From: Octopus vulgaris
Taxonomy: Eukaryota
NCBI GenBank assembly: GCA_951406725.2
Contig: OX597827.1
Coordinates: 82,584,001-82,648,000, forward strand
Length of the DNA stretch: 64,000 nucleotides
Reading direction: 5' to 3'
Shown here: in pieces, positions 1,680 to 55,111 of the stretch
How the letters are laid out: every line of letters begins with the position of its first letter
Position numbering within the stretch: the first letter of the stretch is position 1
Program-made: the position numbers and the translations under genes
Notes under the pieces: model-generated
Told to the model about the DNA's origin: nothing
Databases searched by the model: none
The model's input: the letters and a program-made list of their open reading frames with translations, nothing else

Positions 1680-1865
1680 CATTTCATTTTCTCTCCTTCT
1701 TTCTGTGTTTTTCTCTCTCTGTGTATCTTTCTGTTGAAGAGCGTAGGCTCGAAACGTTAAAGACTTGTTTTATTTATATTTCCTGAGCGCCATACTAATA
1801 CAATTGTTCGTTTGTTTTCCACCTGCCTTCGTCTTTTGTTTATTTTCATAAAGCTTCCCGTTATA
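1680..1865 (+). mobile_element. ~190-bp dispersed repeat with variant hammerhead-like fold, copy 1
   Basis: TCTTT-CTGTTGAA-GAGC-GTAG-GCTC-GAAA-CGT-T-AAAGA at 1726-1763, then a conserved 3' part ending in (TA)n. Near-identical to 37495-37685. Confidence 0.7.
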
Positions 1866-1894
1866 TATATATATATATGTATGTATGTATATTC

Positions 1895-2085
1895 ACCCTG
1901 ATAGATCACTAGCCACTAAACCTTTTTCTATTTTCTCTCCCTGTTTATTTCTGTGTTCCTTTCTGTCGAAGAGCATAGGCTCGAAACGTAAAAGACTTTC
2001 TCACTTCCGAGCGTTAAACTAATACATCTGTTTGTTGTTATTACACCCGTCTTCGTCTTTTGCATTTTTGTAAATTCTAACTATA
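1895..2085 (+). mobile_element. ~190-bp hammerhead-like repeat, copy 2 (tandem with copy 1, diverged subfamily)
   Basis: CCTTT-CTGTCGAA-GAGC-ATAG-GCTC-GAAA-CGT-A-AAAGA at 1958-1995. The 3' part (GAGCG..ACTAATACA..TTTGTT..CTTCGTCTTTTG) is homologous to copy 1. Ends in (TA)n. Confidence 0.65.
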
Positions 2086-2097
2086 TATATATATATA

Positions 2098-2410
2098 TAC
2101 CCATGCTAGCAGGGGAAACGGACGTTAAACGATGATGATGATGATGATATTTATATATTTTTTTCAGTGTGTTTAGCTAAATATTATATATATTTCAATA
2201 TCATCATCATCATCATCATTGCTTAACGTCCGCTTTTCATGCTGGCATGGGTTGGCCAGCTTGACTGAGTGCTGGCAATCCAGGAGGCTGCACCAGGCTC
2301 CAATCTGATCTGGCAAAGTTTCTACAGCTGGATGCCCTTCCTAATGCCAACCACTCCAAGAGTGTAGTGGGTGCTTTTTATGTGCCACTGGCACAAGGGC
2401 CAGTCAGGCG
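2098..2410. mobile_element. Two RTE 3'-end fragments arranged tail-to-tail
   Basis: + copy CCATGCTAGC..GGACGTTAAAC(GAT)n at ~2098-2147; - copy (ATC)n..TTAACGTCCGC..CATGCTGGCATGG..GGATGCCCTTCCTAATGCCAACCAC at ~2200-2410. Both match 37320-37493. Confidence 0.75.
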
Positions 2411-6600: not shown

Positions 6601-6677
6601 CAAAACCGTCCAACCCATGCTAGCATGGAAAGTGGACGCCAAACGATGATGATGATGATGATGATAATGATGATGAT
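6597..6677 (+). mobile_element. RTE 3' tail fragment
   Basis: CCGTCCAACCCATGCTAGCATGGAAAGTGGACGCCAAAC(GAT)n. Confidence 0.75.
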
Positions 6678-6694
6678 GTGTGTGTATGTGTATA

Positions 6695-7860
6695 TCATCA
6701 TCATCATCCTCTTTGTTTAATGTCTGCATTCCTTGCTGGCATGGGTGGGACAGTTTTACAGGAGCCAGCCAGGCAGAAGCCTACACGAGACTTCTGTAAC
6801 TGTTTTAGTAGGATTCTTACAGCTGGATGCCCTTCCTAACACCAACCACTCAGCAAAGTGGACTTGGTGCTCTTTACGTGACACAAGCACAGGCAAGGTC
6901 AGTTTTGGCAAGTTTTTTACAGCTGGATGCCCTTCCAAATGCCAAGTGTGGACTGGATGCTTTTTAAGTGGCACCTGCACTGGCAGGGTCACCAAGTACC
7001 TTGCAAGACAAAAAAAAAACCTTTGAGATGGGAGGGGGGCATTGGAGGAGGTGATCTTGTGTTAGATCAAGAAAGGTTGTAGTGAGAGATAGAAACAGGT
7101 ATCTTGCTGTAGAGGAGGTACAAGGTTACCTGGCCAGAGAGAGAGAGAGAGAGAGAGAGATCAGGAATGAAGAAAGGAAAAGGTGTGCTGCTGCAAAGGA
7201 GATACATGGTTACCCAACATGAGGGAAGGAGAGAGAGAGTGGGAGACAACAGGATAGAGATGGTGGCAAAAAGGAAGAGAGTGATATAGAATGTGGCAAG
7301 TGTCAGGGCAGACCCTTGAGGTTCGAATGTCATAATATAAGTGGCAGGATATTGCGAAAGGAGCATGATTGGAGAGTGCAGAGGAGGGAGAAAAGGGTGG
7401 TGAGAACCTGAGTATATATAGAGTGGTGGGGTGGGCTACCGGATAGCAATAATACAGAAAAACATGGCCATGAGGACAGGATTGGGGAGTGAGAGGTAAG
7501 CATAGAGCATGAAGTGGAAATGTGAGGGAGAGGAGAGATGTAGTTTGGTTTGTTGTGGTAGGGTGTGTGAGAAGTTTTCATGTTAAGTGTGGGTGGGACA
7601 CACAGCACTTCTAGAACTCAGTTTTGCTGACACGGGCAGGTCTTCTCAAGAGCCTCATATTGCCAGATATCTCTGTCCATTGACATTTCTTCCATGTGCT
7701 TATTGTTCCTGCACATCTGCCACATACAAAGACAACTTTATCAGTTAATCTATCCGTGATTCCACTGCACCTCTTATGTATCCATAGTTTACCCGGGATG
7801 CAGCGAATGGACTTTCTTCCAACTCCTTTCCTACATATTGAGAAGGGGCCATTTACCTGA
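6695..7860 (-). mobile_element. Internally deleted RTE LINE with long 3' UTR
   Basis: (ATC)n tail and conserved 3' end at ~6695-6990. ORF-end-like sequence at ~7620-7690 joins directly to the PHD-like segment at ~7705-7860 (GKW..ICRKGVGRKSIRCIPGKLWIHKRCSGITDRLTDKVVFVCGRCAG). Confidence 0.65.
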
Positions 7861-11634: not shown

Positions 11635-11638
<4 letters not shown>

Positions 11639-11700
11639 CGGGAAGCTTTATGAAAATAAACAAAAGACGAAGGCAGGTGGAAAACAAACGAACAATTGTA
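11635..11700 (-). mobile_element. Truncated 3' part of the hammerhead-like repeat family
   Basis: Reverse complement of ~1799-1864, embedded in (TA)n on both sides. Confidence 0.7.
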
Positions 11701-11756
<56 letters not shown>

Positions 11757-14580: not shown

Positions 14581-15234
14581 ATATGTGTATATATATGTAT
14601 ATGTATGTATGCATGTATATATGTATTATATATGTATATATGCATATATACACACATATACATATATCATCTTCATCATCATCATTTTATGCCCTTTACG
14701 TCTACTTTCTGTACAAGTATGGGTTGGATGAGTCATCACAGTGCAAGTCGTTTTCTCATCGGGAGTCACTGCTCTCGAAGACTGTTGTTTGGTTCCAACA
14801 ATTTGCTTGGTTTCTCTGACTCTTTCTCCTTTCTATCACAAAACCATTCCACAAAGTGAATCTGCTACATTTTTCTCATCATACTAATTCTGGATAGGTT
14901 GAGTAACCCTCAGTAAATCAGGATTAAAGGGATACCATAACCCTGCACTTTCTCTGCTCATTTGCCAACCACTTTACAGAATGTTCCAGAGGCCTTTTCA
15001 TGGCACGAGCCCCAGGAGGGTGGCCTCCACCCAGTATTTATTTGCAGAAGGAATGGAATGGGCTCTTTCATAGCACCAGTACAGAAGATGGGTTTTCTTG
15101 TAGTCAGTTTAATACTGAGAGGAACTCACAGACAGACATTCGTTTATTCCTCTTGAAGCAAAGATAATTTCAATAAATCATTTATTTCTTGCAACAGACC
15201 TTTCTTCATCTTTCTTATCCAAATTGTGACTTAT

Positions 15235-15430
15235 ATCATCATCATCATCATCATCATTTTACATCCATTTTCCATGCTGGCATTGGTTTGACAGGTTGAC
15301 AGGAGCTAGCAAGCCAGAGAGCTACACAGGCTCCAATTTTGTCTGTTTTGGTTAGGATGCCAAGGCTGGATGCCCTTCCTGGTGCTAACCACTTTACAGA
15401 GTGGACTGAGTGGTTTCTATGTGGCACCAA
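15235..15430 (-). mobile_element. RTE 3' end fragment
   Basis: (ATC)n, CCATGCTGGCAT, GGATGCCCTTCCTGGTGCTAACCAC. Confidence 0.7.
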
Positions 15431-20004: not shown

Positions 20005-20026
20005 GAACACTTGATACCTTGTCCTG

Positions 20027-22429
20027 ATGTTCTACAAAGAAAACAATGACAATATGCTCAGACAAACCAGTCTTTTAATCCTGTTGTTTCACAGCACCCT
20101 TTGTGTTGATCTGGTTTATCACGTTGAGGAAGGCAAAAGTCCTGGCACCTATCTTGGTAACATTGCTGTTGATTCACAACTTCTGGAGACTATTCCAGCC
20201 CAAGACTATAATTTGATTCAATTCAGTCAGCTTCAGAGAAGAGAGACTCAACAATTTAACATCACAAAAGTCGGAGAAATCTACACGGCTGGCACATTGG
20301 ACACAGAGTCCCTGTGCCTCTACAACAAGGAGTGTTCAGTGATTGTCAAAGTGGCAGTTCGTAAAGCAAAGACTTTTATGAAGATTCTCAAAATTAAAGT
20401 AATTATAAAAGATGTTAATGACCACCGACCAGTGTTCCCAAGTGCACAATTTAATCTTCAGTTTGATGAAACGGATGGTAAAGGGACCACAAAACCAATC
20501 CCTAATGCCGTCGATGGGGATGTTGGCATATTAAATTCTCAAATAACTTACCGGTTGAAAAAAAACAAAAACGAACCATTCTCGTTAGCAGTATCAGAAC
20601 GAATTGGGGGAAAATCCAAACTGGGAATTCTCCTGGAAGAGAAACTTGATCGAGAAGTCAAAGATAATTACGATTTAGAAGTGATTGCCACAGATGGAGG
20701 TTCACCTCCCAAACAAGGGGTGTTAAAAATTCAAATATCTGTCATTGATGTAAATGACAATCTACCGTTTTTCTCTAAAAGTATCTACAATATTTCCATA
20801 CAGAGTTCCTACAGAAAGGACAGACCAATCATTACAGTGTCAGCAACAGATTTAGATTCTGGTGAAAATGGTAAAGTTACATATCACTTCAGTCCAAAGA
20901 CTTTAGATGTTGATCAAAGCCATTTCCGCTTAAATCAATACAATGGAGAAATATCCGTACAGCAAATGTTTGGCCATGGACAAAAACAAACATACAAACT
21001 GTTTGTCGAAGCCATTGACGGTGGAAGCCCATCGTTAAGTTCATCTGCTTTGGTTCTCGTTAACATCATTAATCAAAGAAACAATCCACCAACAATTGAT
21101 GTAGATTTTGTGTCTGGATTGAAAGAAAATACGACAGTAATTTCAGAAGACATTGAAGTGGGCAGTTTTATTGCTTACGTCATGGTGATCGACAACGACA
21201 ACGGTGAGAATGGAGAGGTGAAGTGTGAAATGAGACATGAGAAGTTTCAGCTTCTGAGTTTGGCTCCGAAAGAATATAAAATAACAATGAAAGGTTCTGT
21301 GGACAGAGAGGTGACCAGCCAGTATGAGATTAGAATTAACTGCCGAGATAATGGCTCTCCACCTTTACAATCAAGGAAAGTGTTTACTATCAAAGTTCAG
21401 GATGTTAATGACGTCCAGCCTAAGTTTATCAAGGACACTTTTAAGTTTTTGACTTATGAGACTGAAACAGCCAACTTTCCAGTTGGTTTTATAAGTGCTG
21501 TTGACCCTGACCTGGGGACAGGAGGTCAGCTGGTTTATTCTCTTCTCAATAAAAAGCACAATGCTTTTCCATTCCAGATAACTGAGTATGGATTTATTTC
21601 AACAACAGAAGCCTTAGATCGGGAAGAACAGAATATTTACAAATTCCAGGTTTTTGTCAGAGACAGTGGAGTCCCTCCATTAAACAACACAGCAAATGTT
21701 GTTGTTGAAGTTGTTGATGAAAACGACAATGCCCCTTATTTTACATTCCCTAGTGTTGACCCCTTTAGCCTTGATGTCCATTATTATCCTCAAAGCAAGA
21801 ACGACATCACAGTGCTGAGGGCTGTTGACAGAGACACTCGTGAAAATGCATTCCTTAAATATGGAATACTTCGGGGCAATGACAAACAGTTATTTGGGGT
21901 CAATCCTTACACAGGGGTCTTATCATTCTCTCGCACCGTCTACCAAAACGATGCCGGAGCTTATAATCTTAAATTAGTTGTGAAGGACAGTGGCAGTCCG
22001 ATTCTGTCAGCGATGACAACAGTCACTTTAACGCTGACAGTTAGTAACAAGACATCAACAATGCTGACAGCGGTTCAAGTCCAATCAGGTGAGATGATAG
22101 ATATCAATTTAGTGATTATCATCGTAATAATAGCAGTGGTAGTTTCCATAGCGATAGTTATCTTCATCACAACATGCATTGTTAGGAGCCAAAATGGCCG
22201 AAATGTAACGACAAGGACCGGTGACAACCCACATTATCGGTCCCGAACTGAAATGAAACAATTGATTTACCAAGCAAACACTGCGGGTATGATAGCAAGG
22301 AACCCAGAAGAAATAGCAGACAATGATGACCAATCAATAAAATCTAGGAGTCAGTTTTATCCTGAAGAGGAATCACAGAAGGAATGGATGACACCAACAA
22401 TTGTGAAAACATTTCCAAAAGCATCAAAG
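20027..22429 (+). CDS. Protocadherin, large coding exon (signal peptide, EC1-EC6, TM, proximal cytoplasmic tail)
   Basis: 806-aa ORF with cadherin motifs (DVNDHRP, LDRE, ATDGG, DVNDNLP, DLDSGENG, VDRE, DVNDVQP, DPDLG, LDRE, DENDNAP, DRD, KDSG). Protocadherin-type Cys-X5-Cys in EC1 (CLYNKEC). Signal peptide MLRQTSLLILLFHSTLC (likely start ATG 20054; upstream in-frame ATG 20027). TM INLVIIIVIIAVVVSIAIVIFITTCIV at ~22103-22183. Acceptor TTTTTACTTCCAG ends at 20004. Donor AAG|GTAAG follows 22429 (phase 0, codon 801), just before the ORF's stop. Confidence 0.95.
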
Positions 22430-22543
22430 GTAAGCAATTTCTGTTGATTATTAAACATGTCTTTCGGTTGATTGTGTTGTTCTTAAGATTAGGTATTACA
22501 ACTGTCCATGCTATTGTGACATAACACAAAAAGTCCACTTCTG

Positions 22544-32964: not shown

Positions 32965-33132
32965 GAGTCCACTCTGTTGGGTGGTTGGTGCTAGGAAGGG
33001 CATCCAGCTGTTAGAATCCTACCAAAACAGTCACAGAGGTCTGGTGCAGGCTTCTGCCAGGCCGGCTTCTGTCAAACCATTCCACCCATGCCAGCATGGA
33101 AGGTGGACGTTAAACAATGATGATGGTGATGA
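32965..33132 (+). mobile_element. RTE 3' end fragment
   Basis: GTGGTTGGTGCTAGGAAGGGCATCCAGCTG..CCATGCCAGCATGGAAGGTGGACGTTAAAC(AT)GATGAT. Confidence 0.75.
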
Positions 33133-33199
33133 TATCTCGCTTCTCTTTGAGGAGGCACAGGTACTTATGTACACATGTACGCACATAACAGGAACTTGC

Positions 33200-36559: not shown

Positions 36560-37493
36560 AAGAAGCATTAGATGTGGTGTGCAAGAGAGATGACTGCGCT
36601 GGTATGGTCATGTGGCAAGAATGGACGAGGACAGCTGTGTGAAAAAGTGCCACACCCTAGTGGTTGAGGGAACCTGTAGAAGAGGTAGACCCAGGAAGAC
36701 CTGGGATGAAGTGGTGAAGCACGACCTTCAAACGTTAGGCCTCACCAAGGAAATGACTAGTGACCGAGACCTTTGGGAATATGCCGTGGGTGAGAAGACC
36801 TGGCAAGCCAAATGAAACCATAATCTCATGGCGTATGCCAGGGGCATAACCAGCCCACTTATTCGTAACCTTTTCCTTCTTTGGACACTAAAATTCTGCT
36901 TGCGAAGACCTGTTGAGGCAAGTGAAATCAAATCAATCAAAGCAAAATCAAAATTAAATTCGATGACTGGCGTCCATGCTAGCATGTTGCAAAGAGCACC
37001 ATATGAGCGTGATCATTGACAGAGCGGCTAACCGGCTTCCGTGCCAGTAGCACTTAAAGGGCAACATTCGAGCGTGATCGTTACCAGCATCACCTTACTG
37101 GCACTTGTGCCCATGCTAGTAGGGTGCCAAGAGCACCACCCGAGCGTGATCATTGCCAGAGCAGCCAACTGGCTTCCTTCCCAGTGGCACGTAAAAGGAC
37201 ACCATTCGAACGTGATCGTTACCAATGTTGCCTTACTGGCACCTGTGCCGGTGGCATGTGTAAAAGGATTCAAGCGAGGTCATTTCCAGTACCGCCTGAC
37301 TGGCCCCTGTGCCAGTGGCACGTAAAAAGTACCCACTACACTCTCGGAGTGGTTGGCATTAGGAGGGGCATCCAGCTGTAGAAACTCTGCCAAATCAAGA
37401 TTGGAGTCTGGTGCAGCCATCTGGTTCACCAGCCCTCAGTCAAAATGCTAGCATGGAAAGCGGATGTTAAACGATGATGATGATGATGATGAT
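36560..37493 (+). mobile_element. 5'-truncated RTE LINE: ORF end, repetitive 3' UTR and (GAT)n tail
   Basis: [61 protein letters not shown] (stop at 36815). The UTR has GAGCGTGATC-anchored subrepeats and ends GCATGGAAAGCGGATGTTAAAC(GAT)n. Confidence 0.9.
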
Positions 37494-37494
37494 G

Positions 37495-37681
37495 GACCGT
37501 TAGCTCCTACACGCATTTTTTTCTCTCCTTGTTTCTTTTCTGTGTATCTTTCTGTCGAAGAGCGTAGGCTCGAAACGTAAAAGACTTGTTTTATTTCTAT
37601 TCCTGAGCGCCATACTAATACAATTGTTTGTTTGTACTCCACCTGCCTTCGTCTTTTGTTTATTTTCATAAACCTTCCTGT

Positions 37682-45204: not shown

Positions 45205-45465
45205 TATAAAATGGTTGGTATTTGGAAGGGTCATCCAGCTGTAAAAACCTTGCCAAAACTGACCTCACCTGTACTTGTGCCACATAAAAAGCATTAAGTC
45301 CACTCTGCTGAGTGGTTGGTGTTAAGAAGGGCATCCATCTGTAAAAATCCTGCCAAAACAGTCGCATCACAGAAGGTGACAGAGCAGACTTCTGCCTGGC
45401 CAGTTCTTGCCAAACCATCTCACCCATGCAGCCAGGCAGCTGTTTGATGATGATGATGATTATGA
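45205..45465 (+). mobile_element. RTE 3' end fragment
   Basis: Duplicated GTGGTTGG..AAGGGCATCCA motif, ending in (GAT)n. Confidence 0.65.
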
Positions 45466-45859
45466 TATATATATATCTTTTTTATCGTTTACTGGTTTCA
45501 GCCCAGGGCTGAGGTCATGCTGGTGCACTAGATATACATATACACCCACATATATTCCTATGTGTGTGTTTAAGTGTGTATCTGTTCATAGTCTTAAACA
45601 GCCCCACCTGGAGCAAATGCACTCTACCCACTGCATTGAGTATCTTTATAAGGTAATGTTTGCATTTTGTCGATAGAAATGGTATTCGGCCACAGAATCC
45701 ATGGAAATGAGGCACTGATTCCACCCCCAGCTACATCATGGGTTGCAGAATATTGACCCTGAAGGATGTTGACCCTGAATATAAACTGATGCAGATTAGA
45801 GGGACTCTCTGGTCTTTGTTGGGCATATGGCACAACTTCTGTGTTGCAATAAAATGCAA

Positions 45860-53324: not shown

Positions 53325-53374
53325 TGTATGTATGTATGCATGTCTGAATGTATGTATGTATGTATGTATGTGTG

Positions 53375-53408
<34 letters not shown>

Positions 53409-53490
53409 TGTATGTATGTATGTATGTATGTATGTATGTATGTATGTATGTATGTGTGTATATATGTATGTATGTATGTATGTATGTGTG

Positions 53491-53524
<34 letters not shown>

Positions 53525-53630
53525 TGTATGCATGTATGTATGCATGTATGTATGCATGCATGTATGTATGTATGTATGTATGTATGTATGTATGTATGTA
53601 TGTATGCATGCATGCATGTATGTATGTGTG

Positions 53631-53664
<34 letters not shown>

Positions 53665-53722
53665 TGTATGTATGTATGTATGTATGTGTGTATATATGTA
53701 TGTATGTATGTATGTATGTGTG

Positions 53723-53756
<34 letters not shown>

Positions 53757-54246
53757 TGTATGTATGTATGTATGCATGCATGCATGTATGTATGTATGTA
53801 TGTATGTATGTATGTATGTATGTATGTATGTATGCATGTATGTATGTATGTATGTATGTATGTATGTATGTATGTATGTATGTATGTATGTATGTATGTT
53901 ATTATGTATGTATGTATGTATGTATGTATGTATGTATGTATGTATGTATGTATGTATGTATGTATGTATGTATGTATGTATGTATGTATGTATGTATGTA
54001 TGTATGTATGTATGTATGTATGTATGTATGTATGTATGTATGTATGTATGTATGTATGTATGTATGTATGTATGTATGTATGTATGTATGTATGTATGTA
54101 TGTATGTATGTATGTATGTATGTATGTATGTATGTATGTATGTATGTATGTATGTATGTATGTATGCATGCATGTATGTATGTATGTATGTATGTATGTA
54201 TGTATGTATGTATGTATGTATGTATGTATGTATGTATGTATGTATG

Positions 54247-54280
<34 letters not shown>

Positions 54281-54426
54281 TGTATGTATGTATGTATGCA
54301 TGCATGTATGTATGTATGTATGTATGTATGTATGTATGTATGTATGTATGTATGTATGTATGTATGTATGTATGTATGTATGTATGTATGTATGTATGTA
54401 TGTGTGTATGTATGTATGTATGTATG
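53325..54426. repeat. ~1.1-kb (TATG)n tetranucleotide array
   Basis: Seen directly, with CATG and TGTG/TATA variant units. Confidence 0.97.
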
Positions 54427-55111
54427 AATGAATGAATGAGAGTCTCATTGCTTCTGTATCTCATAGAATTTGTTCTGAATCTGTCTGCAATATAAACTAT
54501 GAATAAAGGTTCCGACCAATTCTGAAGGAGAGCTGTAGTCATAAAAATCAATTCCCAAATTAGGAAGTATTTTAAGATTTGAACCTAAAACATAGTCAGA
54601 CATAATAATTCCAAGTCTTCTAGTCACTCTAGTTATATTGTTAAAGCATTGCTGCCACCAAATACCGTTTTCTAAAAGATTAACCCTGCATAACCACCCA
54701 GTTTCCACCCATCTTGACAATCCCCAAACTTATCACCATTTAAACATGCATTATTACAACTAGATTATACAAAATAACACTTTAAAACTATTCTGTTGTC
54801 TGGGGAGGGCCATTCTCTTTTGGTGCTTCATAATTTGACACACTCACTGGTAACTTTTCCACTCATTTACTTATTTATTTTCCCTAAAATTTTCATTGTG
54901 TCTTGCAACATATTCAAAAGTTGTAGACTTTTGCAAACCAAATCCAAAAAGGAAATAATTTAAAACTATGTTCGGCTGATAATACCTTTCTTAAAAGCAA
55001 TATTGGTCTGATATCGTATATCAACGTAATCTACAATATGGCCATGGAATACATATCAACATAATATGCACCAATTTGATATACAATCTAGCAATATGTT
55101 ATAGAGAGCAA

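Follow-up and report, generated by a model that had tools for sequence, protein, structure and literature searches.

Two adjacent repeats near the start of the window (the whole 64-kb stretch of Octopus vulgaris DNA that was analysed) each carry a hammerhead-like fold in which a conserved A of the catalytic core is replaced by U. Two questions are raised by this locus: whether the pair forms a self-cleaving RNA system of the retrozyme type, and whether a hammerhead with this substitution can be expected to cut. The reading that we prefer, with a probability of roughly 0.55, is that the units are separately inserted, truncated 3' ends (pseudo-LTRs) of Penelope-like elements (PLEs), carrying a U6 hammerhead that would be slow or dependent on assistance. 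The features of the locus are collected in Table 1.

Table 1. Features of the repeat family in the window.
Feature	Position	Strand	Evidence
Copy 1, subfamily A, truncated repeat unit, putative PLE 3' end	1685..1861 (5' boundary approximate)	+	93.8% identity to copy 3; contig depth rise
Copy 1, minimal hammerhead motif	1726..1763	+	motif match, folding, sequence comparison
Copy 1, stem I	1726-1730/1759-1763	+	
Copy 1, core	1731-1738	+	
Copy 1, U6	1734	+	
Copy 1, stem II	1739-1750	+	
Copy 1, G12	1751	+	
Copy 1, palindrome	1754-1757	+	
Copy 1, predicted cut	after U1758	+	
(TA)n/(TGTA)n tract closing copy 1 at its 3' end, putative insertion target adjoining the start of copy 2	1862..1892	.	sequence
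Copy 2, subfamily B, repeat unit whose 3' flank differs	1893..2082	+	77.5% identical to copy 1, 82.4% to copy 3
Copy 2, minimal hammerhead motif, 4-bp stem I, predicted misfolded	1959..1994	+	motif match, folding
Copy 2, U6	1966	+	
Copy 2, N7	1967	+	
Copy 2, G12	1983	+	
Copy 2, predicted cut	after A1990	+	
(TA)n tract, 3' end of copy 2	2083..2098	.	sequence
Copy 4, subfamily A, 66-nt 5'-truncated 3' end without hammerhead, (TA)n on both sides	11638..11703	-	65/66 identical to copy 1
Copy 3, subfamily A, solitary, followed by (TA)n	37495..37681 (5' boundary approximate)	+	motif, identity to copy 1
Copy 3, hammerhead motif	37547-37584	+	

The pattern CTGTYGAAGAGC-N4-GCTCGAAACGT matched the window exactly at 1731, 1963 and 37552. 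No further site was found in the whole window when up to three mismatches were allowed, and none of 100 shuffles contained any match. The sequence-only reading, which had described a tandem pair and a third copy at 37547-37584, was borne out on this point. The core starts of copies 1 and 2 were spaced 232 nt apart. In hammerhead numbering, the motif consists of C3 U4 G5 U6 N7 G8 A9, an extra A, stem II, G12 A13 A14, an ACGU palindrome and H17, the last being U at 1758 and A at both 1990 and 37579. Stem II was formed by 4 bp (GAGC/GCTC) with a 4-nt loop in the window copies. Stem I, which had been described for both units of the pair, had 5 bp in copy 1 and in copy 3; in copy 2 a C-A mismatch takes the place of the fifth pair, leaving 4 bp. 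When the motif was compared with the consensus core (C3 U4 G5 A6 N7 G8 A9 / G12 A13 A14 A15.1 / U16.1 H17), it failed at position 6 only: this position was U in all three hammerhead copies of the window, as had been pointed out before, and all other core positions matched the consensus.

This architecture supports the assignment of the motif to a variant hammerhead fold of the minimal type I, of the Penelope kind, as originally proposed, with self-cleavage putative. The features fit the published consensus of the minimal PLE hammerheads (min-HHRs; PMC4209133), which share the type I topology, the short stem I, the extra nucleotide that separates position 9 from 10.1 (present in 42 of 44 rows), the G10.1-C11.1 pair and the GAAA-C-G-U-H palindrome (15.2-16.2) without a stem III, and which also occur as dispersed, mostly single copies. 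The extra A had been listed as unusual, but it is already part of the published PLE consensus CUGANGAH. Judged by comparison of motifs, the extra A, the 4-bp stem II and the ACGU palindrome are all published min-HHR features, and U6 alone is unusual. Position 6 was A in 44 of the 44 published rows, which had been collected with a descriptor that required an A6 core (PMC4209133), whereas it is U here; a further difference is that no parent ORF was seen for the octopus family in the window. PLEs of the Neptune type and of the Hydra clade that target (TA)n likewise have a hammerhead near the 3' end, a TA target and 5' truncation, but in Hydra-1_Obim position 6 is A, stem II has 7 bp and a genuine stem III is present (PMC8557442). 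Scanning of the window sequence alone against Rfam gave no hammerhead match at 1700-2060 at E values up to 10, and over the window only microsatellite-driven matches of miRNA type were present among the 150 of 366 rows listed.

To judge how general U6 is, contigs from several runs were considered. The stretch was present in 20 of the 24 listed runs, from 9 studies and 4 coded organism labels. Contigs of four of these runs were aligned at a likeness of at least 80%, yielding 22,863, 10,286, 22,968 and 4,508 contigs; contig depth does not equal copy number, and the repeat family is plainly very abundant. Depth of the family contigs climbed steeply from about 1685, and the interval 1895-2085 was covered by contigs in all four runs. 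Of 53 rows of variant calls, 40 were listed. Rows listed for positions other than 6 wholly accounted for the T>A tallies (4, 5, 5 and 5 per run) and the T>G tallies (1 in each run); A6 and G6 therefore each make up less than 3% of depth in all four runs. Between one and three T>C rows fell outside the 40 listed, and C at position 6 is possible. The shared U at position 6 is thus a property of the family in the four runs as well as of the window copies. Contigs with loose ends or joints just after stem I (at 1766 and 1999) revealed further subfamilies, which have the U6 motif with other spacers and 3' flanks.

Variation in the motif was concentrated at N7, loop 2 and H17. At N7 (position 1967), all four bases were found, with A at 18-24%, G at 16-29% (29% in run X9), T at 10-23% and C at 37-41%. 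H17 was mostly A with some U across contigs, and the first loop position, which lies in a CpG, was either G or A. The remaining listed changes in the motif were CpG transitions, including one at G12 at 3.5-7.7%, and this decay means that individual copies drift. The constancy of stem II and the variation of its loop (GTAG/ATAG), both of which had been remarked upon, were seen again, but they do not amount to covariation evidence: the loop change sits in a CpG with the preceding C and may for that reason be methylation decay. Covariation of the stems had been proposed as a check on the fold. Across families, the pairs of stem I covaried in the expected register, with 13 double changes that were matched in 2 of 500 shuffles. 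Stem II showed no covariation within the family; it is fixed by the search pattern and invariant in the family, and is thus uninformative here.

A slow, assisted ribozyme working in master elements is, on balance, the probable state of the U6 hammerhead, its activity being putative. Against cleavage, folding predictions gave a probability for pairing of G5-U6 with A15.1-C15.2 of 0.97 in copy 1 and 0.4 in copy 3, and of about 0.01 with A6. Even A6-bearing minimal hammerheads of PLEs show weak activity (PMC4209133), and no cleavage was reported for 8 of 9 Xenopus dimers (bioRxiv 10.64898/2026.07.22.740005). In favour of cleavage, the natural A6C hammerhead of phage Bcep176 resembles the octopus motif in its pyrimidine at position 6 within an otherwise intact core, and is slow in Mg2+ and good in Mn2+ (PMC3088659, PMC7151607); the octopus family differs from it in having U instead of C, in being a high-copy animal repeat instead of one phage locus, and in that its activity is putative. 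Cleavage by the hammerhead of the Anolis PLE, likewise, takes place only when the PLE protein is present (PMC11167929).

The main rival, which we regard as possible but doubtful, accepts the same PLE origin and holds that A6U killed catalysis in an ancestor, the fold being kept as a non-catalytic cis-element such as a signal for RT binding or priming. The competing pairing of U6 described above is in keeping with such a loss, as is the low activity of CUGA-turn mutants in pairwise mutagenesis of a type III hammerhead (PMC9901934). It is also in its favour that insertion of the Anolis PLE in vitro does not need hammerhead cleavage (PMC11167929), and that Naiads thrive without canonical hammerheads (PMC8557442). 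However, the variation in the octopus family tracks the catalytic consensus, with N7 free, H17 restricted to A or U, and C3, G5, G8, A13 and A14 held, a pattern that a mere binding site would not have to show. The two possibilities originally left standing were an active variant and a family spread from a dead ancestor; either may hold, and the restriction of variation to free positions tends to favour a fold maintained by selection.

A more far-reaching form of the active reading is equally tentative. An active U6 lineage might have swept the octopus genome in several PLE subfamilies, with the G5-U6/A15.1-C15.2 pairing serving as a safety catch until the element protein or Mn2+ refolds the RNA. 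If this were true, A6 would no longer be a required base of the natural core, and an entire class of highly abundant ribozymes in animals would have escaped searches based on CUGANGA.

The arrangement of the pair was next compared with that of a non-autonomous non-LTR retrozyme, which would be transcribed in tandem, cleaved at its two hammerheads and closed into a circular RNA of 232 nt; this was the dimer originally suggested. The spacing of 232 nt and the GC content of 34% are within the retrozyme range (PMC7229834), and the unit size, the low GC and the presence of two type I hammerheads about 230 nt apart are shared with these elements (PMC7229834; bioRxiv 10.64898/2026.07.22.740005). All three inter-copy helices of a double hammerhead could be drawn, and a derivation of retrozymes from PLE pLTRs has been proposed (bioRxiv 10.64898/2026.07.22.740005). 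The units themselves, however, did not behave as a dimer. From the core to the 3' end, copy 1 was 93.8% identical to copy 3, located 36 kb away, and only 77.5% identical to its neighbour, copy 2. (TA)n was present at the 3' end of all four copies in the window, beginning 120-131 nt after the core start in those with a hammerhead, and copy 2 started directly after the tract that ends copy 1. The two units, each closed by a (TA)n tract of its own, represent different subfamilies, and a retrozyme dimer is thus not supported. Of the four copies, two were solitary, and no contig piece spanning both units was found among the pieces listed.

Folding pointed in the same direction. The double-hammerhead fold was predicted to lie 15.4 kcal/mol above the minimum, and stem II was predicted with a probability of 0.99 in copy 1 and 0.90 in copy 3, and of 0.01 in copy 2, which misfolds. 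The 232-nt circle was not unusually self-paired (z -1.3 against 100 shuffles, 50% paired). Published retrozymes are homogeneous tandems with highly self-paired circles and canonical hammerheads (PMC7229834; bioRxiv 10.64898/2026.07.22.740005) that have a 6-bp helix I and loop contacts (PMC4209133, PMC7229834), whereas the octopus pair consists of heterologous units split by a microsatellite, with a minimal non-canonical hammerhead and weak self-pairing. A working retrozyme is thus an improbable explanation. The pair in the window is likely an inert fossil, and its tandem arrangement is probably incidental.

Copy 4 is truncated inside (TA)n, and this truncation, together with the TA ends, is the pattern of truncated PLE insertions into TA microsatellites. 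5'-truncated insertions of this kind have been described for PLEs (Craig et al., PMC8557442), with the hammerhead about 100-200 nt from the 3' end, which abuts (TA)n (PMC8557442), and PLEs tend to insert beside earlier copies (PMC6765202). A scenario for the locus can be outlined from these observations. An endonuclease-bearing PLE would nick TA-rich DNA and reverse-transcribe from its 3' end, and most insertions would halt after 70-200 nt. Copy 2 would have inserted next to the TA tract at the end of copy 1. In the master elements, selection would have kept the hammerhead fold despite A6U. The U6 hammerhead would most likely be a slow ribozyme helped by the dimer and by protein, with U6 slowing unassisted cleavage, partly via the pairing of G5-U6 with A15.1-C15.2.

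Whether selection needs to be invoked at all depends on the contrast between the core and the flanks. Between copies 1 and 2, 0 of 22 fixed motif positions and 24 of 88 positions of the 3' flank differed (Fisher p 0.002), which suggests selection on the fold; between copies 2 and 3 the figures were 0 of 22 and 20 of 87 (Fisher p 0.007). Both significant tests include copy 2, and the flank alignments are of low complexity. Within subfamily A, the contrast was non-significant (0 of 22 versus 6 of 98, p 0.29). This last result would be expected if U6 had come from one very successful master and the conserved core reflected shared ancestry and chance, and a small number of masters can dominate a family; G12, moreover, is reached by CpG decay. 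Against this reading, which we consider about as improbable as a retrozyme, the flanks differ at 23-27% of positions between subfamilies while the motif differences are all at free positions, and N7 carries transversions at 16-29%. The comparison suggests a fold under selection in the master elements with neutral decay in the inserted copies, as judged from few subfamilies with low-complexity flanks.

The same scaffold was sought in other sequence sets. When metagenomes were scanned without constraining positions 6 and 7, at least 119 loci were recovered, with 42 of 64 parts covered. Position 6 was A in 107 of 120 matches among those listed; when U16.1 and H17 were also present, A6 was found in 94 of 96 listed matches, with one U6 and one C6. 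These matches are not independent because they include many near-identical copies of few families. The U6 match (locus L159) and the C6 match (L074) were single complete motifs on low-GC contigs, in families that otherwise have A6, and are probably single-copy mutations. At another locus, L124, two minimal A6 hammerheads lay in opposite orientation about 30 nt apart (605-688). Such an inverted arrangement of hammerheads is known for PLE insertions. The U6 pattern had no match in viral contigs. It had 60 matches in 59 prokaryotic loci, none of which continues with CGT, and these were therefore treated as chance.

At three of the at least 119 loci (L066, L091 and L165), an ORF of PLE-type RT/GIY-YIG type was located upstream of the A6 scaffold on the same strand, in a search for which only PLE proteins were used as queries. 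The ORF of L091 matched RVT_1, and its homologues carry RT domains, with GIY-YIG also in 2 of 32. Both L066 and L091 have the GAGC/GCTC scaffold in common with the octopus motif, and have a cysteine linker preceding a nuclease-like region. From the shared features and the PLE ORFs near the scaffold, the window motif appears to be a widespread PLE scaffold with one change. The flanks are unlike those of L066, the similarity being at chance level (156-292 of 300 shuffles scored as high).

No PLE ORF remnant was detected in the 64-kb window by tblastn with PLE proteins, and two protein searches gave no protein matching the antisense translation of copy 3. No contig links U6 to an ORF, and PLE parentage is thus something that we infer. 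In the O. vulgaris assembly, PLEs make up 6.83% and include 31 recently active families according to a 2026 annotation, for which the repeat consensus library was deposited on Zenodo (PMC13282606). The repeat is probably already present in octopus repeat libraries. Identity with the published octopus elements Naiad_Obim or Hydra-1_Obim was considered and rejected, as the published 3' end of Naiad_Obim and the hammerhead motif of Hydra-1_Obim differ from those of this family, and sequence words of the family were absent from the octopus PLE entries compared. The least credible alternative is that the units are tails of a SINE, or of a LINE that targets microsatellites (Dong-R4, for example), in which case a non-PLE element would have captured a PLE hammerhead. 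In its favour, O. vulgaris has abundant, active SINEs and LINEs, Dong-R4 among them (PMC13282606), and the parent ORF was not found in the window by tblastn with PLE proteins. Against it, the upstream retroelement ORF at the scaffold loci was of PLE type (with PLE proteins as the only queries), and PLEs show the same placement relative to the 3' end and the same TA target (PMC8557442).

The surroundings of the copies were also inspected. The window is rich in microsatellites, with a (TGTA)n array of about 1.1 kb at 53325-54438 (278 copies, 95% match). An uninterrupted reading frame of 810 residues with cadherin repeats is present at 20015-22447 on the + strand; it shares 100% identity with a protocadherin of Octopus sinensis, 99% of the query being aligned, and has many paralogues at 52-64%, and the window is probably located in or near an octopus protocadherin cluster. 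Another dispersed repeat, which looks like a SINE and ends in (GAT)n/(ATC)n, was observed at 2099-2413, 37290-37493, 6613-6945, 15232-15427, 32966-33135 and 45215-45475. It forms an inverted facing pair at 2099-2252, directly after copy 2, and another piece abuts copy 3.

In the literature searched, neither a U6 hammerhead family nor the octopus motif was described; the survey of PLE variants by Lünse, Weinberg and Breaker (Lünse 2017) lies outside that search and could already list U6. In passages of PMC6962438, PMC13725137 and PMC6155905, nothing on the octopus U6 motif was found. The family represents a natural experiment on the role of the hammerhead in PLEs: a change that should impair catalysis has become fixed in divergent subfamilies of a highly successful repeat, with the rest of the core held. 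If the motif cleaves, the natural hammerhead core would extend beyond what current descriptors permit, and many motifs in animals would have been overlooked. If it does not cleave, PLE hammerhead folds can persist for a non-catalytic role.
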